DNA of 64,000 bases, from NCBI RefSeq assembly GCF_004010195.1, contig NC_057751.1:9059611-9123610 (forward strand). The letters are read 5' to 3'. Position numbers and translations under genes: made by a program. The notes beneath the pieces were generated by a model. That model saw only the letters and a list, made by a program, of their open reading frames with translations. It was not told where the DNA came from and did no database searches. Numbering within the stretch: position 1 is the first letter of the stretch; each line of letters opens with the position of its first letter. Of this stretch, positions 2,936 through 43,484 are shown one piece after another. Source of the stretch: Chiloscyllium plagiosum (lineage: Eukaryota).

Positions 2936-5749
2936 TTGGAATCCCATCCTAAGCGGAATGCTTGGGTTGAAATCTCTAAGGAGAGCTGTGAGAAGTTTTA
3001 ACTACAGACTGAGGCTCATTTAATGTTGCATCTCCATGACATTACTTTCTCATGAGCTCAAGTCCTGGTATGGGGTCTGAACACATTATTTTCATAACTC
3101 AGGGGTAAGGAGCACTTCCAAATTGTGCAAGTTGACATTGGGATCCGTCAACCCCAAAATTAACCAGGATGTTAAGACCCAGGTTTTAAATCATGATCTG
3201 AATGTACAATTGTGAATAAGCAGTGTCACTTGACTATGAAAACCTTTCATAGAGATGTACATGTGAATAATGAAGGTGAGAACAAAGCAGGTTATAACTT
3301 TCATTTACATAGCAAAAAGGAAATGTCAACAGATTGTATCAATAATAGGTGTCATTCCCATTTGTCATGTTTCTCACTGGTCAAGCAAAGCATATCATTA
3401 TGTAGTACAATAAATATGATCAAACTGTCTTAAAAAAAGACTTGTTTGATACATGTATCTTGCATGGTTTGCCGACATTTGTTATATTCAGGGTTCACAG
3501 TATAAATGAATTAGCTCGTGAATCTTCAACACAAGGGTGTGACTTCAATCAAAATTCTTGCTAGGTATGAAGTTTGTTCAGATGACTCTGGGTTTGGTCA
3601 CTCAGTTTAAAGTCCCCCAACCTCTGATTAATTGTGTAAAGTTTCGTCTGTGAAGCTCAAACATGTGTGTTTGGATTCAGTCCCTGAAGTTCTTAAATGT
3701 ACTTTAATATGAAGTTCAATCCAAACAATTCCAACACACAGTATATTATCAAAAAACGGGCTTTACAGACAGCTTTGATTGCACTTTAGGGTTTTCAGTC
3801 AGAAAATGTATCACCATGTGATCATGTTCTGCACTCCAGAGAGGGAACTTTAAATTCCTCAGATTTCAACCAGAGCATTCCAATTAGGATGGGATTCCGA
3901 GTGGCACACAGCCTTGATGGTTTTTAGTCTTATATTATCGCATTTTCTCTCTCACTGTTCCCTTTATATTGAAAAGTGAAAAGAGCCAGGGTTCAAAATG
4001 CAGGACGCCACAAGTATTGTAAAAAGTAGAAGAGTTGAATCATGAAATAGCTTGGATATAAAATGCTTATTTCCGAGAAGGATTAGATCAAAAGAGTAAA
4101 GGAATACATTCAAGTTGACACATTGCAATATGTCTTGACTGAACACTGTGAGAATACAGGGGGGCACTGACAGCTCAATGAGATTTGGAGAAACTCAAAA
4201 GAAAATCAAGATTGAGGAAAAAGCAAGAGAGACACACACATGGACAAAGAAAAGCAATTGCAGGTGGGGGTTGACAAAAGTACTGATAATGAGTCGAGCA
4301 TCTTTTCTGTATTTTGCATAATGGCATGACAGAGTCTCTAGAAGTAATTTGTCAAATGTGGGACAGCATTCTAAAGTTGTGTTGGAAGTAGACTTAACAA
4401 ATAAAAGAGATAAGAATGTTGTTCTTTCTCGGTTTGCTGCACTACAACTGTCATACAAGTAATTAGTGGGAGGCTTTACCTGAAGGAATGTGCTCCACTT
4501 CTCTCAATAAAATTATATTGTTCTCGACAAGATAATTTCTCTCGTCCTATGAAGAACTCTCACTGGACCTTCTTTTGAGAACACTTCATTTGCAATTACA
4601 AACTCATAGAGTCTTTAAGGTATAAATCCACACCTCAAATCTCAGCCCAGGAGCTTTGGAATTATTTTCAATAATTGTGTCAGAATTTAATTTGAATATA
4701 AAATCATTGAGCTGTCAGTTGAGACATCCATACTGGGACATTAGACTATAGCAAGCTATTTGCAATCAGAAAGAGAATACAATTTAACTCTCAAAAGGCC
4801 TAAATTAATATTTCTGCATCACTGAATATTAGGAAGCAGGAAAAGAGTGACACAAAAGACCAGAAGAACATTTTTAATTAACTTGCTGATGACAACAACA
4901 GTATTTTATAAGTGAGGTATGGGTTAATCTCAGGGGGCTCCATGGATCCGAAGCCAGTGGAGATAGCAGCCTGTTCAAAATAGAAGTACGATTCAATAAA
5001 GCGAAGAAGCCGTACAATGTTTACTATAGATTAGAAAGATACCAAAACACCTTCAGGACTTTGCCAGAAGCATAGATAGTTTTTATTATAGGCTACCATC
5101 TTTAAAGTACTTTATGAAGTTTAGCACCTTCCTATCCTTTTTCCATTCAGAACTGGAAAAGCCCCATCAATGCACGAAATTCCAGTGCAACATGAGTTTG
5201 AAGGATAGCAGTTGATCACTCGATTAGATGTTTTACAGGTTTCCAAGTTCATCACTGACCTTACAAACTTGAACTACTGGATGGTTACTTTTGAAATTAT
5301 TCTGGTTTGCTCATGTATACCTCCTCCAGACCAATCTTTTGTTTCTCAACTTGATGAATATGCTTTCCTGTTGCCTTACACCATCATCCTCATTGTCGAT
5401 TTATCTCTCCTGCCTTTCAACCTATCACAGAGCTTCTCTCTTATTCTGTACCTCATGCCCCACCTCTTAAGTTGCTTAAAACGTATTAAATCTTGGTTTT
5501 CTTGACTGGTGAAAGTCATGAACCTGAAATGCTGACTTTTGCTTATCTTTTCACAAGTGCTATGTGACCTGCTAAATATTTCCAGCATTTTCTTTATCAC
5601 ACACACAGTTCAGTTTCTAATTTCACATTTCAAAACAATCAGCATGTCAGAAGGGGAAAATAAGGATTGGATTGTGAACTCAGAATTGAGGATGAACACA
5701 GGGAGAGAACAAGAGGCATTCTGAGAATACAATTTGTAAAAGAAAAAAT

Positions 5750-12545: not shown

Positions 12546-14156
12546 GAATTTTAATTCCTGAAGTAGGAAATATTTCTTCCCAAGCATGAAGAACAAATGA
12601 AATAAAACTGCAGATTGTGCAGGCAGCAACCATATCAGAAAATGACTATTGAAATATCTGAAGGAATGAGAACATGAGAAAACAGAATGTTTTTCTTGTA
12701 ATATCAATTCAAAGTCATTATTTGGGGCTGACTGTTGGATATGAATCAAGAAATTCTTGGACTGATTATTGGTTAAGTGTTGCTTCATTCCGATAGGCAC
12801 TAAATTATGCTGTGCTCAAGATGATAAAATACACATGCTATAGGGATGGATTCAAACCTTTAAAGCAAGGACTGGCCTCTTTCATTTTCCATCACCATAT
12901 TGCTTGTTGGTTTGTAAGAATTCCAACTGACAATATTCTTCAGATTGTGAGTTGACAATGTTGAAGCCAAAACTGAAGCATATAGATCAGGATGGTTCAA
13001 GATTAACTGTTTGGTCTGTACTGACCTAATGGATCAATTCCATAATGCTTTTTAAAAACACATCTGTGTGTCAATATATCAATAAAACTTAAATTTTGAA
13101 ACCACATTCTTGATTTAAAGACTCTGCTATGTCAACAGCTTTATCCAGCCATTCAAGATTTCTGTGCTTCTCTAGTTTGAGCTCTTGCACTTGAATAATG
13201 TCATCATTGCTGGCAGTGCCTTAAGCTGTTTAAGTTGTCAGCTTGAGAATTCCCCTCCTGAAAGTTGCTCTCTTAAGCAACATCTTAAAACTTTCCTGAT
13301 ATGTTAAGATTTTGGTAATGGCATTAATATCACCTTTGATGGCTTGGGGCCATATTTTATTTGCGAATGTTCTTACAAAGTGCTTTGGAGGTTTTACAGT
13401 CTTATACATACAAGTTGTCACAAATATGATGATCCATGAAGTTGCAGGTCTTCACTAAAATCTTAAATGATGATCCACATTTGAACCCTACTCTCAACAG
13501 AAGCTGCATTCTACGGATACAATTACCCTGTGGCCCCAAGAGAATCTTGGAATGGCACAGCACAAAAGGAGTCCATAAAGCCCATCATGCCTGTACAAAC
13601 TCTTTAGAAGAGTTCTCCATGGGAAAAGTAGCCAGCCAGTGATGCTGACTGAGGACAGAAATTTCCCCTTAAACTTAACCTGAAGAACGAATTGATATGG
13701 GGTGTCCAAATTAAGAAAACCAAAGGATCAGTTGATGGCACAATAGAGGGAAATGAATGAGAAAAATGTCTTGGGTTAAGGTAAACCTGTTCTCCTAATA
13801 TATTGAGGTTTGTACTGCTTTGTAACAAAAGACCAGGAACATAACTACCTCAATGACTGTCTACCTCTCATTCAGCTCCACCTGATCCCTCTTTCTATTT
13901 CATCACAAGGACCTCATTTCACTTGCTTGCTTCTTTATCCGTAACTGTACATAATGTGATTTCTTTCTGCACTTCTGCCAGTCTCCTCTCTGCTTCTATT
14001 TGTTCTTTTTTTGGTCTGCTCTCATATCCTGTCTAATTCCATCCTTTGCAATGGGCTGCCAATTAAACTTGTTTTACTTCATATGAGCAGCAAGACAAGT
14101 TTTCTTGACATAATACTGACAGCAAGTGGATTTTACTACAGTATGTTGTGCTTTAG

Positions 14157-14324
<168 letters not shown>

Positions 14325-14864
14325 TAAGTGAGGCTGAAGATTCCTCTGGAAAGGGACAGCATCATGCTGGTGAGCTCCTTTACATTTCTGAACAAACTGT
14401 GGGCAATGACGCTCACCACAGATATCTTGTGGAACCCCAATAAATAATAACCTCCTTCTAAACTGAGAAGCCTGACTGCTCTTCTTGTTCCCGATCCCAA
14501 TAAAATGATACGAATTGCTACGTTTGCGACAAGTGTCCTGGCTGAGATGGGGTCACTCTGCCCAAAAGGGGGCACTGATACCAATCGGCTCCTAATGAGT
14601 GAGCTCAGTAACTCATGAAAGGAAATGTAAAATAATTAGAAATAACCAGAAATAATTTTGAATATTCACAGCTGACACTGAGAAGTTTCAGATAAAATTA
14701 CCTGTGGGGAGCAAGTGAGGTGGGATGGATCAGACGGTCCTTTTGCCTCTTGCTTCTCAGAGTCTTAGGATACATTCTGTCTCCATTGAGGATCTTAAAT
14801 AAAATTAGCTCTGAGAATCTTAATTTACTGCCTGATATAATGACCTGATCTACAGTTCATAGCT

Positions 14865-15140
14865 AGAAACATAGAAAACAGTAGCAACAATAGGCCATTC
14901 AGCCCTTCAAACCTGCTTCTCCATTCAATATGATCATGCCTCATCCTGTTATTCAGTCCCCTGTTCCTGCTTTCTCCCCATACCCTTTGATCCCTTTCAC
15001 CCTCAGAACTATATGTAACTCTTTGTTGCAAACAGTCAATGTTTTGGCGTCAACTACTTCCCTTGGCAGAGAATTCCACAGGCTCACCACTCCTAAATGG
15101 CCTACTCCATATCATTAGAATGTGATCCCTGGATCTGATT
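14865..15140 (-). mobile_element. CR1 3' tail fragment
   Basis: tagaaacatagaaaa...aggccattcagccc...gaattccacaggctcaccac; homologous to 50060-50390. Confidence 0.75.
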
Positions 15141-15313
15141 TCAAAACTAACTCATAATATTGAATCTCACCCACAGAGGTCAGAGGAGAAATTGTTATTT
15201 TGGTCCAGTGCGAATGTTTTAATGATGTGGGGGTGCCAGTGTAGGACAGGATTGGACAAAGTTAAAGATCACACAACACCAGGTTATAGTCCAACAGGTT
15301 TATTTGGAAGTAC

Positions 15314-15342
15314 TAGCTTTCGGAGTGCTGCTCCTTCATCAG
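15314..15342 (-). ncRNA. Minimal hammerhead-ribozyme-like motif, inverted copy
   Basis: Exact reverse complement of 15444-15472; only 2 bp of stem I. Confidence 0.65.
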
Positions 15343-15443
15343 GTCGCTGTGGAGCAGAATCATAAGATACAGAATTTATAACAAACGATCACAGTGATCT
15401 TTTGCTATAAATTCTGTGTTTTATGATCCTGCTCCACAGCGTC

Positions 15444-15472
15444 CTGATGAAGGAGCAGCACTCCGAAAGCTA
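15444..15472 (+). ncRNA. Minimal hammerhead-ribozyme-like motif (PLE type)
   Basis: CTGATGA-A-GGAG-cagca-CTCC-GAAA-GC-TA: intact core boxes, 4-bp stem II and palindromic AGCT in place of stem III. Stem I is poorly paired, so activity is unproven. Confidence 0.65.
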
Positions 15473-15769
15473 GTACATCCAAATAAACCTGTTTGACTAT
15501 AACCTGATGTTGTGTGAATGTTTTAATGACATTGATAGAGATGCACTGCTGGAATATTGTAATTGGAGCTTTTTTGTTGTATCTCACCATGTTGCAACTG
15601 ACCCTGAAGTATTTGATGGGGCAAAGTAAAAGGAGCTTGACTGCATCTAACACTAAATGCTCGATGCGAAGGCAGAAGGAGCCTAACTCTTCACTTAAAC
15701 CATGCTGTCACTTAGTTGGGAGTATAGGATGGAACAGCCTGGAGCAAACTTTACTGTGCATGCTAACAG

Positions 15770-16720
15770 GAAGCAAGTGGGAGGGTTGGTAAGTGCAAGT
15801 GTTGTGTCAAAGGGATCGGTGCTGGGTCCACAACTATTTATACTGTCAATCAATCATTTGGATGACAGGGCTGAAGATATGATAGCTAAATATTCTGATG
15901 AAACCAAGGTGCTTGGAAAGTAAATTGTCAGGATGAGGTAGAGAATTTGCAAAGGGGAATACATAAGCTAAAAAATGGCAAGTAAGGGAGAATGTGGGAG
16001 AAGGTGAACTTGTTCACTTTAACAGGACGAATAGAAGAGCAATAGTTTATTCAAATTGAATGAGATTTCAGAATTCAGTGGTACAGAGGCAGTGCGCATG
16101 AATCAAAAAACATGTTAGCAGGCAGAAACAGCAAGTGATTAGAATGTTTTGCTGCATCTGTCTGGGACTTTGCTGAGATCTTATCTAAAGTACTGTCTGC
16201 AGTTCATTTCTTCTTGTTTGAAGGAAAGGTAAAAGTGTATTCAAAGCAGTTCACCTGACTCACTCCTGGGATGAGGGGCTTATGTGCTCAGGAAAATTTC
16301 AACAGGTTGGGCCTCGACTATTGCATTTTAGAAGAAAGAAAAGTGATATTATGAAAACATAGAACATCATGAGCAGATTTGATATTATGGATATTGGGAA
16401 GATACTTAATCTTGCAGAGGAGTGTCATGTCCTCAGGGACACAGTTGAAAAATATGAGGCCTTGGTTTTTAGGAGTAGCACAGGCTTTTTTGCCTCCTTT
16501 ACAAGGCTATTAATATTTGGAATTCTCTTTCCCAGACAGCTCTGGAGGACGAATTTTATCAAGGTAGCATTCAATAGATTTTTGATGGACATGGGAATAA
16601 TGGGATGAGAGGCACTCAGGAAAGCAAAGTTGAGACCACAATTAGATCAGACATGATCTTATTAAATGGTGGACCAGACTCAAAGGGCCAAATGGTCTAT
16701 TACTGCTGCTAAGTGCTCTG
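15770..16720 (+). mobile_element. Old CR1 LINE
   Basis: [30 protein letters not shown] motif, followed by decayed 3' sequence and tail. Confidence 0.75.
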
Positions 16721-17247
16721 TTCCTAACGATTTGTATTCACCAGAATACAAAATATTGATTGGCATTGCATTGGGGGTTCAACTTTGCATTTAAACCTTG
16801 TTTTCAGATGACTGAGAATATTTGACAGGACAACGTGGTGAGATTTGTACTTTTTTAGATGAATTTTATTGAGGAATACAAAATCATGATGTTCAAAGCT
16901 TGATACAGAAAGCACTTTATTCCAGTATTAATATTCCTCATCTTAAGGATCATAAATTTAAAAAGGGACTCAATAATACAATAAGGCAAGCATGGCAATA
17001 TCAAATGGACTGGAAAATATCTCATCATTGTGGTAAAAGATGATTGCTGAAGGGGTTAATTATGGATGTGGTACTGACTTTCCCATTTGACTGATGTGAT
17101 TCAATCTGTGGGTGCAGACAAGGAGTTTTACTCAAGGTTTTGAAGGGAGCAGATGAAGCTGCACCAGCTCCTCAATGACCTCATAATTATGCCTGACCAA
17201 ATGTCGCTAATCTTCTTACTATCAGGTAATCAAACCTTTTGGGTCTT

Positions 17248-17338
17248 GTAACAATGTCCGTTTCTCTGGGCCAGAAAGTCCAGGTTCAGTCCCACATAAG
17301 GTGTGTCATAATATGTCTGAACAGATTGATTAAAAATA
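17248..17338 (+). repeat. Short SINE-like repeat
   Basis: Homologous to 60174-60270 and 10281-10347 (ggttca..., gtgtgtca, tctgaacaga...gatta.aaaat). Confidence 0.55.
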
Positions 17339-18802
17339 ATTGCAATAAATCTTACTGTCTAAGAAGGCTTCCTTTTCAGTAGATATTCCACAGTGGTGCA
17401 TCCACGGCCATTAACCACTAGATAGGTTCAAGATAGAGGAGGATTGGTGGTGCCCATACCCAGTATTACGTATTGGTAGAGGTGGCAAACACCAAAATGG
17501 ACCAAGAATGGTCATTGAAGAAAATATCACAATTACCAACTGGAGGTAAACAGTCAACACAGATGCCAAAACCATCACAACGTTTGCTTTTAATCAAAAT
17601 TTTCTTGTTTCGGCAGAGACATTTTTAACAGATTAGAACACAAGCACAAAATATAGATCATGGGAAAAAAAATATCAAATCCCAATCCTGACTGCATTTC
17701 CAAGATACAAGAGGTTTTTGTAGCTGGAAGGATTTATGCCCAGTGTTTTGGGGATTTGCATGGGACTATAAGCAACCCCCTGGATCTGAGTGCAGCGGAT
17801 CTCAGTTTTGAAAGTCAAGCATTGCAGAAGAAAAAGGAACAGGAAATGGAGGGAGGTGTTAGAGGAAGCTGTCAGGAGATGAGTGATAGATACCAGATGG
17901 CTCGGGTCAGTTTCATTGACCCAGGAAACTGACAAGAGGGAGGAGTGCTGGCACTGGCCAAAGTGCTCAACCCTCCCTGCTGCAATCACAACACATTACT
18001 GAAACCTCGTTTAAATGATTAAGTAGACTGATTCACTCATTTCACAGATTATGTTACATCTCAAACATGGATCTTCCACAGATGCCTTTAGTTTGCCAGA
18101 TGAAAGAAATTAATTTGTTAAACCCTCCCCTTTGCTCCTGAAGGATGGGATGCATTTTTTGTAAAAATGGGCTGTCCTCTTGTAGTCTCATCCAACTGGC
18201 TATTCCTCATGTGTTAACCTTAATTTAGAATGTCAAGAACATTTCAGATCAGCTTGTAATTGTTCTCACCCTTATTTGCCAATCACAATCAAGATCAGAA
18301 TGATAGCTGGTTCTCATTTCTTTTTCTGATGGTTCTAAGGCTAATTACAGTAGTAGGAGAAGCTGTTTTGAGCTGCAGAATGGATAGGGGTTTGAGAACA
18401 TTGTTTTAAGGAGATTGGTGAAAGTTTCAGAAACAGCATGACAAAAGATTTATTTCATACATTACAATAAGTGGCCAGAACCCCAAAATACTGCAGGTGT
18501 TTTGAGCCCTCAAATCTGGAGACATAAGTTCAGTGGTTTGCTGGCAAAACATCTTTGTGAGACTGATGGATTGTCACACCTAAAGGTATCGAGGAAACCT
18601 CAGGCAGAAAGACAGCAAATTGAGATAATAAGTGGGCTGACTGTCCAAAGCTTGCTTCTGATCTGAGAACAATCACTCACAGACATTTACGTGGTTTTCC
18701 TTCCAGGAATGTTAAAAAAGGAGTTAGAAAATTGCTTTAACACAAGTGTCTGTGTGCGCTTTCATTCAACTTCTGTGTACGAGAGTGAGTCTAATTTGAA
18801 TC

Positions 18803-19276
18803 AGAATCCCTACTGTGTGGAAACAGGCCCTTTGGCCCAACAATTCCACACCGATCCTCCGAAGAGTAACCCACTCAGACCTATTCCCCTACCCTATTAC
18901 TCTACATTTATCCCTGACTAATGCACCTAACCTACACAGCCCTGACCACTATGGGCAATTTAGATTGGATTCTCTACAGTATGGAAACAGACCATTTGGC
19001 CCAACAAGTCCACACCAACCCTCAGAAGAGTAACCCACCCAGATCCATTTCCCTCTGACTAAGGCTCCTAACACTATGAGCAATTTAGCATGGTCAATTC
19101 ACCTTACATGCATACCTTTGGACTATGGGAGGAAACCAGAGCACCTGGAGGAAACCCACGCAGATCTGGGGAGCATGTGCAAACTCCACACAGACAGTCA
19201 CCCAAAGCTGGAATCGAACCTGCGTCTCTGGCGCTGTGAAGCAGCAGTGTTAACCACTGAGCCACTGTGCTGCCCC
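18803..19276 (-). mobile_element. HE1-like V-SINE with two tandem 3' tails
   Basis: Head and V-domain at 19089-19276; two different tail variants at 18803-18963 and 18964-19088. Confidence 0.85.
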
Positions 19277-21141
19277 AACTTGAGTTATTTGCTGCAACTT
19301 GCATGCTCAATTTTGTAAATATACCAAATTATTATGAGAATTTAAAGTCTCCTATTTCTGAGAAAATACAAGTCCAGTAACCTCAATACTTTCTCAGGAA
19401 TTAGATTTCACATATACTTGGTGTGGAAGTGATGGTTTCAGAACAGCCATTTTGGGATAGAAAGAAAAATAATGTCTCATTCCAAGTCCTGCAAACCAGT
19501 TTAAAAAAAGGAGTCAGGATAAATGAACTTCAATTAGCACTCAAAACCAAGAATCCTGAAAATCATGTTTTCAACTGTACACATCAATGCAACCAGTGCA
19601 ACAAAATAACAGTAAACTTACTCCTTCGGTGATTTGAAAAAAAGCCCAGCGAAATTGGCTCCTTTTTGAAGCAAAGTTAATTTGATCTGGGAAAAAGGTA
19701 TTCTCAAGGGAAGGGATCCTTTATAAATTAACCTCTTGTAACCAAGAGAGGGTGGGTGAATAAAGAAATACAATCCATTCATTACTTTTCATCTGGAAAC
19801 TGAACAGTGTGGGGTATTCTGTCTGAACCTGTAACATGTTGGGAAGGGTCATCCAGGGTCTGGTTGAACACATGGCAAATTCCTGGGATCTGGAACGGAT
19901 AGACCAAAAAGTTGGTGGAAGTAGCGTCAACTGTAATTTTCAAAGTACTTTGGAATTTGGGTGACGGTAAGAAAATTGCAGGAAAATGGGGAAAGAGAGG
20001 CAGGGTCAAAAATCATTGGATTGTTTAATTAAAGATTCATCACAAGAATGATGGGCTGACTGGCATTTTGATCTGGATCACTATATGATTACTGCTTCCC
20101 TGCTTGAGAGCTTCTAACTCAGCATAGCCTCATGATTGATTCTGGATTGATAGATTGCTACAAACTAGTTTTATCGACATGACCGGAGCATTTTAGACTG
20201 ACTCATCCCATTTTGAAGTTTATTATTTATTCCTGTCGATCATCTCACAATGTGACAGATACCACTCTGTTGACAAAGAAAGCAGGCAGGTATGTGATCT
20301 GTCACAAAGCATTGCTACTGCAGATTTGGCGAGTAAGACTGGTGCAAGGGTGTCACTCACCCTGCCCCACATGCCACCCGAGCACTTACCCAATATCAGA
20401 AAGTCATAACTCAGAAAAAACTCAAGTGCTTTTTCAAAAATAAGTGAATTAATCAACTGTGTGTAGTCCTGACAGAGATCACACATTGAAAAAATAGCTC
20501 TTATGACTCCACTCCTGATTACCACCCGATCAATGACACATCATTTGTCAATCATTCAAGCATTTTTTTCCATTTCATTGCATGAATCTTAATTCTGAAA
20601 TTGGTTTGCAGTCTGTCTTCTCACATTTTGTAGTGAATTTCTAGACATTTTTTCACCTCAAATTCATTTTCCCTCATGCACTTAATATTGTAAAATCATA
20701 AATGAGTTTTTTGTATACAATTCTAGTACATATTAGATATGAGATATCAGATTGCAGTTTTCAGTTCCAGTGATTGATGATAGGAACATTTGTGTCATGC
20801 ACCAAAATCTACGCGCTCTGGAACCATTCTTGCCAGAGCTCATGATTCATTGACATATTCAATGCAAGTTCTCAGATAGCTGAGATCTCACACAGGAGGG
20901 GTACCTGGATTGTTGCCATTCCTCTAACAATGTAAAGGGCTGCAGCAGTCATTTGAAATCATGCATTCTTTAAGCAGTGAAAAATTTATATTCATATTTT
21001 TTTCACGAAATACTAAATACAGTTAAAAATCTAATATATCAAACACTCCCAGGACAGGGACAGCACACTGAGCTCTCTCAGTGATATTGCAGTCATATAT
21101 TTGAAGGACAGGCATAATCTGAGCAGAAATGCAGTGTTAAA

Positions 21142-22715
21142 CTCAGTCATAAAGATGTACAGCATGGAAACGGACACTTTGGTCCAACTTGTTCATGCCG
21201 ACCAGATATCCCAACCCAATCTAGTCCCACCTGCCAGCACCCGGCCCATATTCCTCCAAACCCTTCCTATTCATATACCCATCTAAATGCCTTTTAAATG
21301 TTGCAATTGTTCTAGCCTCCACCACTTCCTCTGGCAGCTTATTCCACATCTCTGCATGAAAACGTTGCCCCTTAGGTCTCTTTTATATCTTTCCCCTCTC
21401 ACCCTAAACCTATGCCCTCTAGTTCTGGACTCCCTCACCACAGAGAAAAGACCTTGTCTATTTACCCTATTCATGCCCCTCATGATTTTGTAAACCTTTA
21501 TAAGGTCACCCCCCAGCCTCCAATGCTCCAGAGAAAATAGCCCTAACCTATTCAACCTCTCCCTATAGCTCCACTCCTCCAACCCTGGCAACATCCTTGT
21601 AAATCTTTTCTGAACCCTTTCAAGTTTCATAACATCCTTCCGATAGGAAGGAGACCAGAATTGCACCCAATATTCCAACAGTGGCCTAACCAATGTCCTG
21701 TGCAGCCGCAACATGACCTCCCAACTCCTATACTCAATACACTGACCAATAAAAGAAAGCATACCAAACACCTTCTTCACTACCCTATCTACCTGCGACT
21801 CAACTTTCAAGGAGCTATGAACCTGCACCACAAGGTCTCTTTGTTCAGCAACACTTCCTAGGATCTTACCATTAAGTGTATAAGTCCTGCTCAGATTTGC
21901 TTTCCCAAAATGCAGCACCTCGTATTTATCTAAATTAAACCTCATCTGCCACTTCTCAGCCCATTGGCCCATCTGATCAAGATCCAATTGTAATCCAAGG
22001 TAACCCTCTTCGCTGTCCACTACACCTCCAATTTTGGTGTCATCTGCAAACTTACTAACCATACCTCTTATGCTCACATCCAAATCATTTATATAAATGA
22101 CGAAAAGTAGTGGACCCAACACCGATCCTTGTGGCACTCCACTGGTCACAGGCCTCCAGTCTGAAAAACAACCCTCCACTACTGCCCTATTGACTTCTAC
22201 CTTTGAGCCAGTTCTGTATCTAAATGGCTAGTTCTCCCTGTATTCCGTGAGATCTAACCTTGCTAACCAGTCTCCCATGGGGAACCTTCTCGAATGCCTT
22301 ACTGAAGTCCATATAGATCACGTCTACTGCTCTGCCCTCATCAATCCTCTTTGTTACTTCTTCAAAAAACTCAATCAAGTTTGTGAGACATGATTTCACT
22401 CACACAAAGCCATGCTGACTATTCCTAATCAGTCCTTGCCTTTCCAAATACATGTACATCCTGTCCCTCAGGATTCCCTCCAAACACTTGCCCACCACCA
22501 ATGTCAGGCTCACCAGTCTATAGTTCCCTGGCTTGCCCTTACCACCTTTCTTAAAAAGCAGCACCACGTTAGCCAACCTCCTGTCTTCCGGCACCTCACC
22601 AGATTTATCCACCTCTATGCGTTTCAAGACATCCAGCACTTCCTCCTTTTTTCAAGATGTCACCATCTATTTCCCTAAATTCTATATCTTCCACGTCCTT
22701 TTCCACAGTAAACAC
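21142..22715 (-). mobile_element. CR1/HER1-type LINE, relatively young, 5'-truncated with internal deletions
   Basis: ORF 21283-22179 (298 aa) has [22 protein letters not shown] and SKFADDTKIG; the upstream fragment has PGNYRLVSLT..QHGFV. Confidence 0.93.
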
Positions 22716-22749
22716 CAATCGAAACTGACTTCATCACCCCCCGCCAAAC

Positions 22750-22777
<28 letters not shown>
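22750..22777. repeat. (CA)14 microsatellite
   Basis: Perfect dinucleotide run read directly. Confidence 0.97.
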
Positions 22778-22779
<2 letters not shown>

Positions 22780-22780
<1 letters not shown>

Positions 22781-23625
22781 ACTTCAGACTACAATAGGAT
22801 GTTGATCAGATGGGCAAATGGGCCAAGGAGTGGCAGATGTACTTTAATTTAGATAAACGCGAGGTGCTGCATTTTGGTACGGCAAATCAGGGCAGTACTT
22901 ATACACTTAATGGTAAGGTTTGCTGAAGAAAGAGATCTTGGGGTGCAGGTTCATAGTTCCTTGGAAGTGGAGTCACAAGTGAACAGGATAGTGAAGCAGA
23001 CGTTGATACACTTGCCTTTGTCGGTCAGTGCTTTGAATGAAGGAGTTGGTCGGTCATGTTGCAGCTGTACACATTGGTTAGGCCACTTTTGGAATACTGC
23101 ATTCAATTCTGGTCTCCCTGGCATGGGAAAGATGTTGTGAAACTTGAAAGGGTTCAGATAAGATTTACAAGGCTGTTGCCAGGGTTGGAGGGCTTGAGCT
23201 ATATGGAGAGGCTGAATAGTTGGGGCTATTCTCCCTGGAGTGTCGCAGGCTGAGGTCTGACCTCATAGAGGCTTTTAAATTATGAGGGGCATGGATAGGG
23301 TGAATAGCCAAGTTTACACCAGGGTGGGGGAGTCTAAAACTAGAGGTTTAAGGTGAGAGGGAAAGGATATAAAAGGGACCCAAGGGGCAACTTTTTCACA
23401 CAGAGGGTGGTGCATGTATGGAAAGAGCTGCCAGAGGAGGTGGAGGTGGCTGGTACAATTACAACATTCAAAAGGCATCTGGATGGCTACATAAATAGGA
23501 AAAGTTCACAGGGGTTTGGGCCAAATGCTGGCAAATGGGACTGTATTACTTCAGGATATCTGGTCAGCATGGATGAGTTGGACTGAAGGGTCTGTTTCCA
23601 TGCTGTACATCTCCTTTACTTGATT
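22780..23625 (+). mobile_element. CR1 3' portion
   Basis: LYTLVRPLLEYCIQFWSP..KLERVQ, RGNFFTQRVVHVW and a CR1 tail. Confidence 0.9.
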
Positions 23626-24749
23626 ACTGATACATCCAGCCAAGTACTTTATTGATACAGATTCTGTTTCAGGGAGGGGTCAAATGGTTTATTTCATTCT
23701 ACCCAATCATTTTCATCAGAAATATTCCCTTTCTCCCTCCATCCTGTCTTACTTATTTGCATCTCATATAATTTCTCTTATTGATATTAACTCCAATAAC
23801 ATTTAACACAAAATAGGCACAGTCTCTTGTTCATAAGGGAAGGTCAATGTATAGGTTAGACTTAATTATTTTATATAGGAGTGGTGAATGTATGAAACTG
23901 ACTTCAAGGAGACAAACTTAACATATTGGCAGATTCAACAGGGGAGTGGATAAAAAGTTAGTGAAGAAACCAATTGAATTTTGTGGAGTTTTCGAGTGAT
24001 GCATGACATCTTTTGGACTGGAATTAGTCTGATGGACTTTTACAACAGTCTGATTTTGTTCAGTGCATTGTTTTACTTTCTCATTCCAGCTCCACTCTCT
24101 TACCTATCTCCTGTTCTTCATCATCAACTAATATCTAAGACAAGGGACCTTTCTCTTTCAGGATAGGCATTTAAAATATTGCAAAGCTTTGGCAGCTGTA
24201 ATTGAATCCACAATTTACAAACAGTGTCAGGCCTGCATATTATGTCCCAGAAAGATGTAGCCTTTCCCTTTGACTGTAAAAGGTTTCAACCCAATGACTA
24301 ACGAGTTTAACTTTTATTTAACATTGTTAACATTGTATGAACCATTTGTGTATCTTAACACGTTCCAGAATAATACTAATTTCTAACATTTTCATAACCT
24401 GTGTTCACAACAAGCTGTTCAATCAGGGGTGAATTCCAGAAAGTTTATAATTGCAACCACTTTTTCAAGTATTTTCAGATGCCCGCACAGGAAATGAGAA
24501 AATCTGCAAATACACTGTCCTGTACATCTTCCAGAAATATTTTAAAAAACTTCAAATTCTTTAAAACTTAAGGGACTGTTCTGGAGAAAAATGGGCGAAG
24601 CACTTGCACAAAGCAAGAGTCATAAATAGCAGCAAAATGAAAAAGGAGCTCATTCTGTTTTTGGTTTAGTTAAGGGAAGGATCCTAACTTGGAATACAAA
24701 CAGAAAGTGCAGAAAAATGCTCAGCAAGTTTGGCAACATCCGTGGAGAA

Positions 24750-25324
24750 GTCGAAAAGTGTGGTGCTGGAAAAGCACAGCTTGTCAGGCAGCATCTGAGG
24801 AGCAGGAGAGTTGATATTTTGAGTATAAGCTCTTCATCAGGAATGAGGGAGGTGCCCAAGGGGGTTGAGAGATAAATGGGAGGGGGTGGGACTGAGGGGA
24901 AGGTAGTTGGAAATGTGGTAGGTAGATGAAGGTGGGGGGTGATGATGATAGGTCAGAGAGAAGGGTGGAGCGGAAAAGGTGGGAAGGGAAATGGACAGGT
25001 TGGACAGTTCGAGAGGACAGTGCTGAGTTAGAGGGTTGGATCTGGGATAAGGTGGGGGCAGGGAAATGATGAACCTGGAGAAATCAACATTGATCCTGTG
25101 TGATTGGAGGATCCCAAGGCAGAAGATGAGGCATTCTTCCTCCAGACATTGGATGGGTAGAGTTTGGCGGTGGAGAAGGCCAAGGCCTTTCATGTCCTTG
25201 GTAGAGTGGGAGGGGGAGTTGAAGTGTTTGGCCGCAGGGCAGTGGGGTTGTTTGGTGAGTGTGTCCCAGAGATGTTCCCTGAAATGTCCCGTAAGTTGGT
25301 GTCCTGTCTCCTCAATGCAGAGGA
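24750..25324 (-). mobile_element. Penelope-like element 3' fragment with GIY-YIG endonuclease C-terminus and terminal repeat
   Basis: Minus strand reads ETGHQLTGHFREHL..AKHFNSPSHSTKDMKGLGLLH..LEEECLIFCLGILQSHRINVDF. A pyrimidine-rich UTR and a decayed hammerhead-like motif (CTGATGAAGAG...CTC) follow near 24812-24840. Confidence 0.8.
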
Positions 25325-25572
25325 GAATAGGAAGGATGCTGGCAGGTGGGAATAGATTGGGTTGGGTTATCTGGTCGGCATGGATGAGTTAGACTGAAGT
25401 GTCTGTTTACATGCTGTACATCTCTATGACTCTATGACTCTCGCATGAGAGGATGCAGAAAAGATTTGCAAAGATGCTGCTGGGACTGGAGGGGTTGAGC
25501 TATCAGGAAAGACTAGATCAACTTGGGCTTTCTTCCCTGGAGTGTCAGAAGTTGAGGGGTGACATTGTAGAG
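25325..25572 (+). repeat. Inverted duplicate of 25960-26199
   Basis: Near-identical reverse complement that spans the junction of two separate CR1 copies. Confidence 0.9.
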
Positions 25573-25619
25573 CAACGGACACAGTAGATGATGTTTCAAA
25601 TCTAATTTGATTCTTCTCA

Positions 25620-26088
25620 TTGAGTCAAAGAGTCATTCACTACAGAAAGAGACTCTTTGGTCCAACTCATCCGCACCGACCACACATCCCAATGTGACCT
25701 CGTCCCATTTGCCAGCATTTGGCCCATACCCTTCCTACTTATATACCCATACAGATGCCTTTTAAATGTGGTAAATGTATCTGTCTCTTGGCAGCTCACT
25801 CCAGACATGCACTACCCTCCGCATGAATAAGTTACCCCTCAAGTCCTTTTTAAATCTTTTCCTTCTCAGCTTAAACCTGTGCCTTTCGGTTTTGTCTCCC
25901 CACACCAGAAAAAGACATTGGCTATTCAAATTATCCACACCCCTCATGATTTTATAAACCTCTACAATGTCACCCCTCAACTTCTGACACTCCAGGGAAG
26001 AAAGCCCTAGCTGATCTAGTCTTTCCTGATAGCTCAACCCCTCCAGTCCCAGCAGCATCTTTGCAAATCTTTTCTGCATCCTCTCATG
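25620..26088 (-). mobile_element. 5'-truncated CR1
   Basis: MQKRFAKMLLGLEGLSYQERL..LRGDIVEVYKIM and a tail at about 25620-25720. Confidence 0.88.
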
Positions 26089-26089
26089 T

Positions 26090-27668
26090 TAGAGTCATAG
26101 AGATATACAGCATGTAAACAGACACTTCAGTCTAACTCATCCATGCCGACCAGACATCTCAACCCAATCTAGTCCCACCTGCCAGCATCCTTCCTATTCA
26201 TATACCCATCCAGATGCCTTTTAAATGGTGCAATTGTTCGAGCCTTCACCACTTCCTCTGACAGCTCATTGCATACATGTACCACCCTCTGCATGAAAAT
26301 GTTGCCCCTTAAGTCTCTTTTATATCTTTCCCCTCTCACCCTAAACCTATGTCCTCTAGTTCTGGACTCCCCCACTCCAGGGAAGAGATTTTTTTCTATT
26401 TATCCAAGCCCATGCCCCTTATAATTTTATAAACCTCTATGAGGTCACCCCTCAACCTTCGACGCTTCAGGGAAAACAGCCCCAGCCTATTTAACCTCTC
26501 CCTGTGGCTCAAATCCTCCACCCTGGAAACATCCTTGTAAATCTTTTCTGAACCCTTTCAAGTTTCAGAACATTCTTCCGAAAGGAAGGAGACCAGAATT
26601 TTAACAACATCCTTCCTATAGAAGGGCAACCTGGAATTTAAGCAGTTTTCCAAAAGCGGCCTCACCAATGTCCTGTACAGCTGTTACAAGACATCCCAAC
26701 TCCTCTAGTCAACATTACGATGAATGAAGGCAAGTGGGTCAAACACATTCTTCACTACCCTATCTACCTGTAACTCCACTAACAAGGAATTATACACCTG
26801 CACCCCTAGGTCTCTGTTCAGCAAAATACTCCATTTACTGCATAAGTCCTGCCCTGGTTTGCCTTACCAAAATGCAACAGCACACACCTAAATTAATCTC
26901 TATCTGCCACTCCTCAGCCAATTGGTAAAGATCTCATTGTACTCTGAGATAATCTTCTTCATTGTCCACTGCACTCCCTATTTTGTTATCATCTGCAAAC
27001 TTACTAACCATACCTCCTACATTCACATCCAAATCATTGATATAAATGACAAAAAGAAGTTGACCCAGCATCGATCCTTGTGGCACTCCACTGGTCACAG
27101 GACTCCAGTCTGAAAAACATCCCTTCACTGCCGCCTTCTTTCTCCGAGCTTCAAGGCAATTTTCTATCCAATTGGCTAGCTCCCCTGGATCCCATGTGAT
27201 CTAACTTTACTAAACAGCCTACTAAGCAGTATCTTTTTGAACACTTCACTGAAGTCCGAACAGACAATGTCCACCACTCTGCCTTCATCAATCTTCTTTG
27301 TCACCTCTTCAAAAAAACTCAATCAAGTTAGTGAAACAGAATTTCACACACAACACCATGCTAACCCTAAATTGCCTTTCCAAATGCATGTAAATCCTGT
27401 CCCTTGGAAACCATTCCAACAACTTACCCACCACTGAACATAAGCCTGACCAGTCTATAGTTTCCTGGCTTTTCCTTACAGTCCACATTAAGGAAGACCG
27501 CAAGTCTTCCAGTACCACATCCATGGCAATTGATGACACACATATCTCACCAAGAGTCCCAGAAATCTCTTCCCTAGCTTCCCATAAAGTTCTGGGAAAC
27601 ACCTGATCAGGTCCCAGGGATTTATCTATCTTTATATGTTTTAAGACCTCCGGTACCTCCCATTTCTG
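26090..27668 (-). mobile_element. CR1 LINE(s), decayed, probably two joined copies
   Basis: Tail at 26090, SGVPQGSMLGQLLF..SKFADDNKIG and DKSLGPDQVFPR motifs. The segment near 26545-26640 appears twice. Confidence 0.85.
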
Positions 27669-27671
27669 TAA

Positions 27672-30600
27672 TACAACATAGAACACTACAGCACAGTAAG
27701 GGCACTTCAATCCATGATGTTGTGCCAACCTTTTATCTGACTCAAAGATCAAACTAACCTACATACCCCTAATTTTACTATCATCCATGTGCCTATCCAA
27801 AAGTCACTTAATTATCCCTAACGTATCTGACTCTCCTGCCACTGCTGGCAGTGCACTCCATGCACCCATCACTTTCTGTGTAAAGAACCTACCTTTGACA
27901 TTTCCTCTAAACCTTCTTCCAATCACTTTAAAATTATGCCTCCTTGTGATAACCATTTCTGCCCTGGGAAAAAGTCTCTGACTATTCACTCCTTCCGTGC
28001 CTCTCAACATCTTATACATCTCTATCAAGTCACCTCTTAACCTTCTTTGCTCCAATGAGAAAAGCCTTCGCTCGTTCAACCTTTCCTCACAAGACATGCC
28101 CTCCGGTCCAGGCAGCATCTTGGTAAATCTCCTCTGCACCCTCTCTAGAGCTTCCACATCCTTCATATAATGAGGCGACCAGAACTGAACGCAATATTCC
28201 AAGTGTGGTCTAACAAGGGCTCTATAGACTGCAGCAAAACCTTGGGGCTCTTAAACTCAATCCCCCAGCTAATGAAAGCCAACACACATATGCCTTTTTA
28301 GCAATCCTATCAACTTTGAGGGATCTATGGACACAGACCCCAAGATCCCTCTGTTCCTCCACACTGCCAAGAATCCTGCCTTTAACCCTGTAGTCTGCAT
28401 TCAAATTTTACTTTTCAAAATGAATCATTTCACACGTTTCAGGTTGAACTCCATCTGCTCCTTATCAGCTCAGTTCTGTATCCTGTTAATATCCTCTTGC
28501 AACCTACAACAACCCTCCACTCCATCAAACTTCGTGTCATCAGCAAACTTACTAATCCACCCTTCCACTTCCTCATCCAAGTCATTTACAAAAATCACAA
28601 ACAGCAGAGGTCCCAGAACAGATCCCTGCAGAAGATTACTGGTCACCGAGCTCCAGGCTGAATACTTTCCCTATACTACCACCCTCTGTCTTCTGTGGTC
28701 CAGCCAATTCTGTATCAGACAGCCAAATTTCCTTTTTTCACATGCCTCCTTACTTTATGAACGAGCCTACCATGGGGAACCTTATCAAATGCCTTGCCAA
28801 AATCCATGTCCACTACACCTACTGCTCTACTTTCATCAATGTGTTTTATCACATCTTCAAAGATTTCAATAAGGCTTGTGAGGCATGACCTACCCCTCAC
28901 AAAGCCATGTTGACTATCTCTAATCAAACTAAGGTTTTCCAAGTAATCATAAATCTTGTCTCTCAGAATCCTCTCCATCATTTGCCCACCACAGACATAA
29001 GACCGACTGGTCTGTAATATCCAGAATTATCCCTATTCCCTTTCTTGAACAAGGGAATAACATTTGCCACCCTCCAATCATCTGGTACTACTACAGTGAG
29101 GACACAAAGATCATCGCCAAAGGCATAGCAATCTCTTCCCTCGCTTCCTATAGAAACCTAGGTTATATCCCGTCTGGTCCAGGGGACTAATTTATCCTTA
29201 TGTTTTTCAAAGTTTTCGGCACATCCTCCTTCTTAACATCAACCTGTTCGAGCATATCAGCCTGTTTCACGCTGTCCTCACAAATGTCAAAGTTCCTCTC
29301 AACAGTGAATACTGAAGCAAAGTATTCATTAAGGACCTCCCCTACCCCCTCCAACTCCAGCCACAAGTTCCCTCCACTATCTCTGAAAGCCCAACCCTCA
29401 CTCTGGCTATCCTTTTGTTCCTCACCGAAGTATAGAATACCTTAGAACTTTCCTTTATCCTTCCTGCTAAAACTTTTCAATGCCCAATTCGAGCTCTCCT
29501 CAGTCCATTCTTCAATTCCTTCCTGGCTACCTTGTAACCCTCTAGAGCCCTATCTGATCCTTGTCTCCTCATTCTTAAGTAAGCTTCCTTCTTCCTCTTG
29601 ACTAGATGTTCCACATCCCTTGTCATCCAAGGTTCCTTCACTCTACCATCCTTTCCTTGCCGCAGTGGGACAAACCTATCCAGCATAATCAGCAAATGCT
29701 CCCTCAACAATCTCCACATTTCTGTCATGCATTTCCCTGGGAATATCTGTTGTTAATTTATGCTCCACAGTTCCTGCCTAATAGCATTGTAATTCCCACT
29801 CCCCCAGTTAAATAATTTTCCTACCTCTCTCCATGAGTATAGTAAAGGTCAGGGAGTTGTGATCACTATCACCGAAATGCTCTCCCATCGAGAGGTCTAA
29901 CACCTGTCTTGGTTCGTTGCCAAGCACCAAAATCAAAATGGCCTCCCCCAGAGTCAGTCTATCAACACATTGAGTCAGGAACCCTTCCTGGACACACCTG
30001 ACAAAACTGCTTCATCCAAACTGTTTGAACTAAGGAGGTTCCAATCAATATTAGGGAAATTAAAGTCACCCACGGTAGCAACCCTGTTTCTTCTGCACCT
30101 TGCCAAAATCTGCCTCCCAATTTGCTCCTCTGTATCTCTAATGCTACTGGGGGGTCCATAGAAAACCCCCAATAAAGTGACTGCTCCTTTCCTGTTTCTG
30201 ACTTCCAACATACTAACTCAGTCGACAAACCCTCCTCGCCGACCTTCCTTTCTGTAGCGATGGTGCAATCCCTGATTAACAATGCCACTCCCCCACCTCT
30301 TTTACCGCCATCCCTATTCCTTTTGAAACATCTAAACCCCAGTATATCTAACAACTATTCTTGCTCCTGTGATGTTCAAGTCTCCATAATGGCCAAAACA
30401 TCATAATTCCAAGTACTGATCCATTCCCTTATCCCTGATGTTTCTTGCTTAAAATGAACACACTTCAACGCATCACACTGACTGCACTGCGGCCCTATCA
30501 AGTGCCTATCCCTTGTCACAGATTCTCTGCATGCCATATCTGTCTGTTCACTTGCTACTCCATCCTCAGATCCATAGCTCTCATTCCCATCCCCTGCCAA

Positions 30601-31030
30601 ACTCTTTAAACCTTCCTGGGGAGCTCCAGCAAACTTCCCGCCCAGGATATTGGTGCCCCTCCAGTTTGGGTGCAACCTGTCATTCTTGTACAGGTCCCAT
30701 CTTCCACAGAAGTTATCCCAATGATCCACTATCTGAATCTCTCCCTCCGACACCAGCCCTGCAGCCGCGTGTTCATCTGCAATCGCTCTCTATTCCTAGC
30801 CTTACTAGCCTGTGGCACTGGTAGCAATCCTGAGATTACGACTCTGTTTGTCCAGCCTTTCAGCTTCCAATCTAACTCCCTATATTCTCTTTTCAGGTCC
30901 TCATCCCTTTACTTTGCTATGTCATTGGTACTGATGTATACCACACCTTCTGGCTGTTTTCCCTCCCCCTTACGAATCCTGCAGATTCGATCTGAGGCAT
31001 CCCTGACCCTGGCACCCAGGAGCAAAATAC
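27672..31030 (-). mobile_element. Long decayed CR1 with RT, AP endonuclease and ORF1 SGNH-esterase remnants
   Basis: RT: QHGFVRGRSCLTSL. APE: GGGVALLI and VGDFNFPNIDW. ORF1: GARVRD..VVYISTND and WDLYKNDRLHPNWRG. Confidence 0.9.
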
Positions 31031-31044
31031 CTTCCAGGAGTCCT

Positions 31045-32245
31045 GTTTGCAAGATATTGCTATTTGTTTTCAAGACGTCACTATCTATTTCCCCAAGTTC
31101 TCTCGCTTCCACTTCCTTCTCTAAAGTAAATACTCACGCAAAACACTTGTTTAGTATCTCATCCATCTCCAGTGGTTCCACACACAGACAGACACATTGA
31201 TCTTTAAGAGGCCCTCAATGTACTTATATTATTTTCCTTAAGTCTATTTGCCAAAGCTATCTCATGTCCCCTTTTTGCTTTCCTGATTTCCCTTTTGGAT
31301 AAGGTAAATAAACAAGGTATTTTCCCTGGGTTGGGGGAGTCCAGAACTAGAGGGTGAGAGGGGAAAGATTTAGAAGGGACCTAAGGGACAACATTTTCAT
31401 GCAGAGGGTGTTGCGTGTGTGGGATGAGCTGCCAGAGGAAGTGGTGGAGGCTGGTACAATTACAACATTTAAAAGGCATCTGGATGGGTTTATGGGTAGG
31501 AAGGGTTTAGAGGGACATGAGCCAATTGCTGGCAAATGGGACTAGAAAAGGTTAGGATATCTGGTTGGTGTGGACAAGTTGGAACGAAGTGTCTGTTTCT
31601 GTGCTGTACATCTCTATGACTCTCAGTATACTCCGACTGCTCTTATACTTTTCTCAGGATTCACTCCATCCCACCTGTCATAAATGCCTCCTTCTTATTC
31701 TAGTATCTAGTAATCCAGCATCCTCTACACCTACCAGCCTTTCCCTTCGCACTAACAGGAATATACTGTCTCCGAACTCATGTTAACTCATTCCTAAAGG
31801 CTTCCCAATTCACAACCATCCCTTTACCTGCGAATAGCCTCCCCCAATCAACTTTTGAAAGTCCCTGACTCATACCATCAATATTGGCGTTACTCCAGTT
31901 TAGAACTTGAACTTTTGGATCAGTTCTATCATTTTCCCAATCTATTTTAAAATGAATAGAATTAAGATCACTTGTCCCAAAGTACTCCCCCACTGATAGC
32001 TCGGTCACTTGACCTGCCCTATTTCCCAACAGGTCAAGAATTGCTCTTCCTCTAGTAGATACATCCAGATACTGAATAAGAACATTTTCTTGTACACACT
32101 TAAGAAATTCCTCTCTAGCCAAGCCCTTAACACTACAACAGTCCCAGTCTGTGTATGGAAAGTTAAAATCCCCTACCATTACAACCCTGTTTTTCTTACA
32201 GATATCTGAGATCACCTGACAGATTTGTTTCTCACTTTGTTTTTC
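31045..32245 (-). mobile_element. CR1 AP-endonuclease region fragment interrupted by a + strand CR1 tail
   Basis: VVMVGDFNFPYTDW..RGRAILDLL..GTSDLNSI in ORF 31778-32254. Confidence 0.8.
31297..31624 (+). mobile_element. Nested CR1 3' end
   Basis: RDNIFMQRVLRVWDELPEEVV and tail tctctatgactct. Confidence 0.85.
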
Positions 32246-32843
32246 TCTGTCCACAGATGCTGCTAGACCTGCTGAGTTTCTCCAGCGTTTTTTGTTTTTA
32301 TTTCGGTTGGTGGGGATCTGAAATACTTTGCTTCTTTATTGACCAGATCACAAAACGTTTTCTTTTTTTAGAAGAGCATCAGGAGATTTTCAACATTCAT
32401 CTTAGGCTCCTAATTAGGCTTTAATTTAAAGTCTTATAAGATCTCTGATAATATGATACTCCCTTGATACTTCACAATGATGTGAGCTTCTATTATGACA
32501 CGTCTTTAACAAACCAACTACATTTTCAGAAGTGAACAAAGGCAACCCAATTTGGCTGAAGCTCTTAAATCTACTTCTCTTCAAAAATATATTAACATCC
32601 TAGTCGACCAACTTGTAGTAACTTCAATGACCTCCCCGAGTGGTAAATCTAAATTAAAAACTGATTTTTTCATTTCTTTTGTACAAGCGAAGATGAAAAA
32701 CATTAAAACTCAGACTTAGAGTTGCCCTAACTAGAATTACCTCATTCATTCCTGATTATAGATGATACTCTGTACCTTTCTGGTGTGAGTGGCTTCTTGG
32801 TCATTTGATAGACAAAAGTATGTATGGAGATCATCAATTATGA

Positions 32844-33077
<234 letters not shown>

Positions 33078-38187: not shown

Positions 38188-38724
38188 CCAAGCAATAGGA
38201 TCATTGACCTATGCTGAATATACTGATTCCAGTTGGGCTACAACTTACCTCAAGACTCCCTGGCTTGGATGTGAAATAGATCAGGCAATATACAATCCTC
38301 AGCAATGTCCAATTTTACCTTTGTCAAAGATGCATTAGATTGATCACAGCTACAATGCTAACTGCTTTGCAATGCTGATTCTTCAACCAGAAAGTGCATT
38401 TACAAAGTTTTTGCCTTTCTACTGCAGCATGGATATGTATCCCAGTCCATTATAGATTTGCCAACAGCTTCATTTCACAAACCTTTACACAGTGTTCAGA
38501 AGCAGGCCACTTGATGCAGCCAGTCTGTGGTGACAATGGTCCTCTGAATCCTCCTCCCATCATTACCCATTTAACTCAGCTTAACTATCTCCTTGCTTTT
38601 TTTCTCATATGCTTCCTTAGATTCACCCAAAGTTCATCTCCACTACTTCTTCACTTAAGATTGTGGTTGCCCTCCTGAAAATCACAACAGTAAATAAAAC
38701 ATTGGAACTGACATTTAAACTGTA

Positions 38725-38953
38725 AGCAAAACAGAAGTTGCTGGAAAAGCTCATCAGGTCTGGCAGCATCTATTAAGAGAAATCAAAGTTAACGTTTCGG
38801 GTCTGGTGACCTTTCCTGAGAAGTTCTGAGGGTGACCAGATCTGAAACATTAACTTTGATTTCTCTTCACGGACACTGACAGACCTGCTGAGCTTTTCCA
38901 GGAACTTCTGTCTTTGTTTCTGATTTACAGCATCCACAGTTCTTTTGGTTTTT
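38725..38953. mobile_element. Fold-back Penelope-like terminal-repeat insertion (second family)
   Basis: Inverted arms at about 38731-38811 and 38830-38911, an unpaired right extension, and TSD atttaaactgta/atttaaactata (38713-38724 and 38954-38965). Confidence 0.8.
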
Positions 38954-39119
38954 ATTTAAACTATAGTTCGATACTGTAGGACTTCATTTTTCAGAATAAA
39001 ATTCAATCAGCATGCACTGTAAGGTAAACTTTTTACAGTACTAAAAATCAAATTTGGTAGATGAAATACTTCTAAATAAAATAAATTTTAAAATGTGAAA
39101 GAAAACTAAACTTTGCAAC

Positions 39120-42300: not shown

Positions 42301-42348
42301 GCCATAACATCGAAATCCCAGGTACCAACCCATGTTGCAAGTTCTCCC
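39336..42348 (-). mobile_element. Long decayed CR1 (APE and RT)
   Basis: GPLLFIIFINDLD..SKFADDTK, DKSPGLDGIYPR..PGNYKPVSLTS and APE remnants (PTR..LNLVL..SDHNSV). Confidence 0.93.
39428..39694 (+). mobile_element. Young CR1 3' end nested in the older CR1
   Basis: Opposite orientation to its host; ctattc duplicated at 39422-39427 and 39695-39700. Confidence 0.85.
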
Positions 42349-42629
42349 ATCCCAACTTAGTCTAACCTCCTTATGACTTTAGAACCACAGCAATGTGGTC
42401 AACTTTAAACAATTAGGGAAACAGATGTTGGTCCATCCAGTGACGCCCACATCCCCTCACCAAAGAGAAAATTATGTCCTTCTCACCAACCACTCACTGA
42501 CTTTCAAGCTGCAGCCTCTTTCTAATTCTTCAACTCTGATTTGTGATCTCTTCATCACTTCCCAACCTTCCAGTCGCAGTGTCCAACCCAAGCCCAACAG
42601 ATCCAGTTCAGTTCTAAGCCAGAGCTATG

Positions 42630-42792
42630 ATGTCACAGATAAAAGGTAGGGAGGAGGGACTTGCCTTTTATCTTAGCCTGCTGGATACACTTTCCTCATT
42701 CCTGAAGAAGGGCTCATGCCCAAAACGTCAATTCTCCTGCTCCTTGGATGCTGCCTGACCTGCTGCGCCTTTCCAGCAACACATTTTCAGAA
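42630..42792 (+). mobile_element. Penelope-like terminal repeat with decayed hammerhead-like motif
   Basis: CTGAAGA-A-GGGC-tcat-GCCC-AAAA-CGTC at 42702-42729 (GAAA changed to AAAA). The downstream sequence matches the 44218-44298 arm. Confidence 0.75.
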
Positions 42793-43480: not shown

Positions 43481-43484
43481 TTGA

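Follow-up and report, generated by a model that had tools for sequence, protein, structure and literature searches.

The window analysed here, a stretch of 64,000 nucleotides (64 kb) of Chiloscyllium plagiosum contig NC_057751.1, carries four exons of an EBF/COE gene on its plus strand; Pfam matches to COE1_DBD or TIG bear out three of these, and one lies below the cut-off. The initial annotation had placed the feature under study in an ebf2 intron, of which the gene family and the strand are borne out by Pfam and the exons. The name is our assumption: two exons differ from both the solved EBF1 and the solved EBF3 chains, and we take the gene to be probably ebf2 by exclusion and from its residues rather than from a database match. 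The element starts 935 nt into an intron of 18.6 kb that is rich in LINE and Penelope-like element (PLE) remnants (Table 1). Many LINE-like RT remnants with 65–85% mutual match were seen at 21145–31623, 39428–44845 and 63224–63995, presumably of CR1 type judging from their motifs, and a frame at 56121–56513 (minus strand) resembles by eye a decayed integrase region of an LTR retrotransposon. A bacterial promoter scan gave no hits and is not relevant to an animal. Of the 24 public runs listed, 8 contain at least half of the words of 14100–16100, and no RNA run is listed as containing them. A literature search for a hammerhead ribozyme in an EBF2 intron returned nothing.

Table 1: Features of the insertion and its host intron, followed by the three short-spacer palindromes with their duplications and tails (window positions).
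Feature	Position	Strand	Duplication	Tail
Host intron of EBF/COE gene (probably ebf2), between exons 14195–14276 and 32892–33009	14277–32891	+		
Target-site duplication, left copy, exact	15212–15225	+	14 bp	
One-sided putative PLE tail of left copy	15226–15268	-		43 nt
Left arm, putative 5'-truncated PLE end module (pseudo-LTR), antisense to host gene	15269–15392	-		
Minimal type-I hammerhead core of left arm, stem I of 2 contiguous pairs	15314–15342	-		
Head-to-head junction centre GATCAC-A-GTGATC, 50–51 nt upstream of each core	15393	.		
Right arm, putative second end-module copy without tail, sense to host gene	15394–15517	+		
Minimal type-I hammerhead core of right arm, stem I of 1 pair	15444–15472	+		
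AATAAA hexamer downstream of right core	15482–15487	+		
Target-site duplication, right copy, first 2 nt common to right arm	15516–15529	+		
Palindrome of the element	15269–15517		14 bp	43 nt
Second palindrome	44128–44299		14 bp	36 nt
Third palindrome	38724–38919		9 bp	about 34 nt

The two arms of 124 bp are inverted around one base, as first described, and 115 of the 124 positions pair across this 1-nt spacer. Five of the nine mismatches are transitions and the inter-arm distance is 0.076, which amounts to a divergence of about 3.8% in each arm on the assumption that both were identical at the outset. That the arms differ from each other argues against an artefact of fold-back reads. Folded as RNA, the region 15212–15529 reaches −205.9 kcal/mol (z = −25.7), and not one of 100 shuffles folded as well. 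The perfect 14-bp target-site duplication proposed earlier is also present, with exact copies of the 14-mer GAATGTTTTAATGA at both flanks. Among 20000 random flank pairs drawn from the window, 4 had a common word of 14 nt, and such draws could include real insertions. The match between the flanks extends to 17 of 18 positions, and the true length of the duplication is 12–18 bp depending on microhomology. The description as a palindromic insertion holds for the inverted arms and fails for the insert as a whole, since the 43 nt that separate the left duplication from the left arm have no mirror partner and a tail, for which the initial annotation gave no explanation, is present on the left only.

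Both arms show the layout CTGATGA-A-GGAG/CTCC-GAA-AGCT-A, starting at 15444 on the plus strand and at 15342 on the minus strand, and both agree with a core of CUGANGA and GAAA with a UH cleavage site. In the right core CUGAUGA (15444–15450) is followed by an extra base before stem II (A15451), a stem II of 4 bp (15452–15455 with 15461–15464) that includes the G10.1–C11.1 pair (G15452–C15464), GAA, the AGCU tetramer at 15468–15471 and A15472 as H17, with a C–A mismatch at the fifth pair of stem II. The palindromic tetramer AGCT replaces stem III in both arms, as in the minimal, dimer-type hammerhead suggested at the outset, and by this layout cleavage would follow 15472, the position that had been given. 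Under a strict descriptor these are the sole cores of the 64-kb window, and 150 simulated sequences of the same length gave none, confirming one core per strand; the two matches are one event and not independent. The Rfam hammerhead models, which the initial annotation had named as a check, gave no match up to E = 10, with none among the 11 and the 3 matches listed, perhaps because the cores are minimal and without stem III. Matches to miRNA precursors in Rfam were all below the gathering scores, reflect the long hairpin and were rejected.

The weakening of stem I noticed earlier is real, with one pair in the plus arm and two in the minus arm as against five in the related sequence L002 described below, and both values are below the published size, which the accessible text of Cervera and De la Pena 2014 (PMC4209133) gives as about 3–6 bp, and 2 bp in D. 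virilis. From the sequence, the short stem I may be read as decay of this copy. None of the nine arm mismatches falls inside the core, which makes up 29 of the 124 positions, a bias that is not significant (P = 0.083), and the covariation of the stems, calculated from only three distinct rows, was reached by 326 of 500 shuffles. Across the families of the window the sequence of stem II varies and its pairing is retained. An ATG inside the right core runs into a stop after 7 codons, likewise in L002, which also has an AATAAA at a similar place.

A search with the core pattern gave no matches in viral and genome contigs and two in metagenome contigs, named L001 and L002, which share 674 of 677 nt; a 21-base arm pattern matched nothing in viral, genome or metagenome contigs. 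The core of L002 is identical to that of the element in 26 of 29 bases. Its stem I comprises 5 bp, and the fold is that of a minimal type-I hammerhead, with a z of only −1.17. Outside the core, the L002 module still aligns with the element at a score that 3 of 2000 shuffles reached. For the stretch of 50 nt upstream of the core alone there is no match, its score being reached by 1001 of 2000 shuffles, and the tails show a weak likeness (45 of 2000 shuffles). At a distance of 753 nt, the L002 core follows a frame that carries a CX2-5CxxC linker together with a GIY-YIG-type motif and itself matches nothing in Pfam, and L001 contains an RT fragment matching RVT_1 (E 1.5e-5, below the curated cut-off). 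In the protein P0007, RVT_1 occurs together with an endonuclease of 49% identity, and both P0006 and P0007 carry the CX2-5CxxC linker before the endonuclease. RT and GIY-YIG reading frames were thus seen in a related family (L001, L002, P0006 and P0007), a relative from another organism, while the exact family of the element yielded no ORF, and by way of the related ORFs the module of the element appears to belong to a PLE, as the initial annotation had proposed from the cores. The clade is probably Neptune, as the linker before the endonuclease in the relative is the Neptune-type arrangement in the accessible part of PMC8557442. A literature search for Neptune Penelope elements in elasmobranchs found nothing. 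L001 breaks off exactly where the tail of L002 starts, and in the alignment the tail-less arm of the element ends there too; an optional tail that makes the assembly fork would produce such a stop. Positions 1–1050 of L001 contain a head-to-head PLE junction, in which a minus-strand RT region joins a plus-strand repeat at about 365–375, with a short word around TGGCCAAGTG common to the two.

A self-BLAST of the window showed that all three of its short-spacer palindromes consist of an inverted pair, a one-sided tail and a duplication. The element has no detectable likeness to the two other families concerned (0 of 6 pairwise tests beat shuffles), and it is absent from the 18 matches listed for a profile of the other PLE end modules of the window. 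The stub at 44115–44349 is younger and belongs to a second family, with arms identical in 80 of 81 positions, a tail on the right and a 10-nt asymmetric centre inside a hammerhead box, whereas that at 38713–38962 is older and belongs to a third hammerhead family, with arm identity of about 80% and its extension on the right. More copies of the second family are located at 24746–25388 (minus), 55655–56024 (minus) and 42690–42790 (plus), the first of which contains a decayed GIY-YIG frame with 70% identity over 70 residues to XP_072428538.1 of Chiloscyllium punctatum, a protein in which RT and GIY-YIG motifs occur. An Atlas search with the 24.8–25.4 kb frame returned nothing. Weak matches to the PLE end-module profile at 5501–5588 (plus, E 0.0036) and 32250–32286 (plus, E 9e-7) are perhaps further decayed stubs.

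Repair of DNA hairpins can leave a symmetric centre of 1 nt. The centre of the element would therefore fit a solo end module that acquired its mirror arm later by fold-back repair at the DNA level, an origin we regard as extremely improbable: both arms lie within the duplication, the arm that lacks a tail ends at the boundary of the tail, as does L001, and the same pattern is found in two other families of the window.

Protein searches with the spurious antisense frame of the element gave one match from four candidates and then four matches, of which P0003 and P0005 were discarded as repeat-rich chance matches. P0001 is an independent copy matching 31 of 40 codons of the spurious frame across tail and arm; read from its translation, it ends at the ribozyme and no mirror half was seen. 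P0004 contains the antisense frame of the family followed by the sense frame from the ribozyme, with a score of 44 that none of 2973 random stretches of the window reached, and seems to be a palindrome with a different centre. This record (WP_221627807.1) is a 61-residue 'hypothetical protein' from a 297-base contig labelled Proteus mirabilis, and probably represents the translation of an animal repeat that contaminated the Proteus mirabilis assembly.

These copies bear on the idea of a separate non-autonomous palindrome, similar to a MITE or a retrozyme, of which PLE proteins would copy the whole 290-nt unit. Both arms share the C–A mismatch in stem II where L002 has C–G, pointing to one parent, and non-autonomous PLE derivatives are described in the available text of a recent preprint (bioRxiv 10.64898/2026.07.22.740005). 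However, only one copy of the family was detected in the 64-kb window, P0004 appears to have another centre and P0001 shows no mirror half, both judged by translation and not by DNA, and the retrozymes of that text are tandem direct repeats and not inverted pairs. We therefore consider a discrete element improbable, and the 'small non-coding derivative' of the initial annotation is not upheld as a distinct element: its layout is the published default and recurs in two other families of the window, and another copy of its own family appears, from translation, with a different centre.

The masking of the ribozyme by its own antisense arm, also suggested earlier, agrees with the folding predictions, in which the right core pairs with the mirror arm with a probability of 0.9996. 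At each of four transcript lengths, stem II is predicted to form in context with a probability below 1e-16, compared to 0.61 for the right arm alone, and the mirror duplex is predicted at −57 kcal/mol, against which stem II reaches −4.6 and the dimer helix of AGCU −2.5. Of the two cores, the right one alone is sense in the host pre-mRNA; at 42702, the other core examined on the sense strand, the motif is damaged and its tetramer ACGU cannot pair with AGCU. With one stem-I pair, no dimer partner and predicted full pairing to the mirror arm, the right core is most likely inert in the host pre-mRNA, and by symmetry an antisense transcript would be masked likewise. Minimal cores require a dimer and even so cleave weakly, according to the accessible parts of PMC4209133 and PMC6765202. 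Against the predicted inertness one may hold that a PLE protein can assist cleavage, as for the protein-assisted PAc ribozyme in the portion of PMC11167929 available to us.

An exapted regulatory element, whose hairpin or ribozyme affects the ebf2 pre-mRNA by editing, splicing, early polyadenylation or cleavage, would be in a suitable place on the transcribed strand 935 nt from the donor site, and it could draw on a very stable 124-bp hairpin, two retained cores and the AATAAA at 15482. We nevertheless judge such a role highly improbable, as the conservation of the core between the arms is not significant, stem I has 1 pair versus 2–6 in the published examples (accessible text of PMC4209133), the sense core at 42702 offers no tetramer able to pair, and two similar hairpins are located in another intron of the host gene. 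None of the findings suggests a function in ebf2. A ribozyme that did cut the ebf2 pre-mRNA would make the locus one of the rare instances in which a developmental regulator is a target of a retroelement ribozyme, but the evidence speaks for the opposite.

Taking together the inverted pair, the one-sided tail, the duplication, the hammerhead cores and the related family with its RT and GIY-YIG frames, the locus is very probably a single old PLE insertion, likely of the Neptune clade, that was 5'-truncated, joined head to head and reduced to the end module. In analogy to published PLE work, a PLE protein would have nicked both strands of an AT-rich site about 12–18 bp apart. Reverse transcription would have started from two nearby points, one yielding the tail and the other none, with one nick priming the tailed copy and the other end being fixed at the tail-less start. 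Synthesis would have stopped about 50 nt past the ribozyme core, the halves could have been joined at GATCAC-A-GTGATC either through one cDNA folding back on itself or through two cDNAs annealing, and the copy would since have decayed. In the pre-mRNA the antisense arm would be made first and would zip up the core, which could then neither fold nor dimerise nor cut.

A variant of this single insertion is twin priming, in which each nicked strand primes at one of the start sites bounding the tail and the products are joined by microhomology. It would explain the inversion, the one-sided tail and the palindromic junction together; we hold it as a tentative and rather doubtful detail, and the three palindromes of the window as well as the junction of L001 fit twin priming and cDNA fold-back equally. 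If twin priming were true, the ribozyme strand would always be transcribed after its own complement in either direction, and such insertions would silence themselves and be better tolerated in introns than single sense-strand copies. As a single locus the insertion is of little weight, being one among many decayed PLE ends. As a class, the short recent-looking palindromes of shark-like genomes are a large natural sample for the formation of inverted PLE ends, and they could decide between fold-back and twin priming, a question that is not settled in the accessible text of the cited PLE papers.

Among known systems the cores are closest to the minimal hammerheads (min-HHR) of Cervera and De la Pena 2014 (PMC4209133), whose available text describes opposed pairs on opposite strands 100–700 bp apart. 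The core boxes, the extra base, the G10.1–C11.1 pair, the palindromic tetramer and the opposed pairs are all shared, and the PLE copies are mostly truncated there too; in contrast, stem I of our element is decayed to 1–2 pairs and its stem II has 4 bp. No shark entry occurs in the available text or in supplement file 2 of that study, and file 1 may list further species. The insertion unit of PLE is described in the accessible parts of Craig 2021 (PMC8557442) as an inverted 5'-truncated copy with a 30–40-bp tail at one end, and the palindromes at the inverted junction were read as self-priming in those of Arkhipova 2013 (PMC3846280). The element shares with this unit the head-to-head copies, the junction palindrome, the tail at one end and the duplication of variable length, and differs in that both of its copies are only about 125–170 nt long without an ORF and the tail has 43 nt.

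A further parallel is PAc from Anolis, a Poseidon element whose protein, in the available text of Frangieh 2024 (PMC11167929), nicks and extends both target strands and starts reverse transcription at two sites bounding the tail; the two starts, the nicking of both strands and the AT-rich target are the points of likeness. Unlike our element, whose ATG in the core is followed by a stop after 7 codons, PAc is of the Poseidon clade with an ORF starting in the ribozyme, and the relative of the element has the Neptune-type CX2-5CxxC linker. The non-LTR retrozymes (bioRxiv 10.64898/2026.07.22.740005, accessible portion) are likewise non-coding, carry type-I hammerheads and are related to PLE, but they form dimerisable tandem direct repeats, whereas the two halves of the element are inverted and each strand has one core. 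The arrangement found here is already published, as the accessible parts of Cervera 2014, Arkhipova 2013 and Craig 2021 show, and the element is an ordinary decayed PLE stub.
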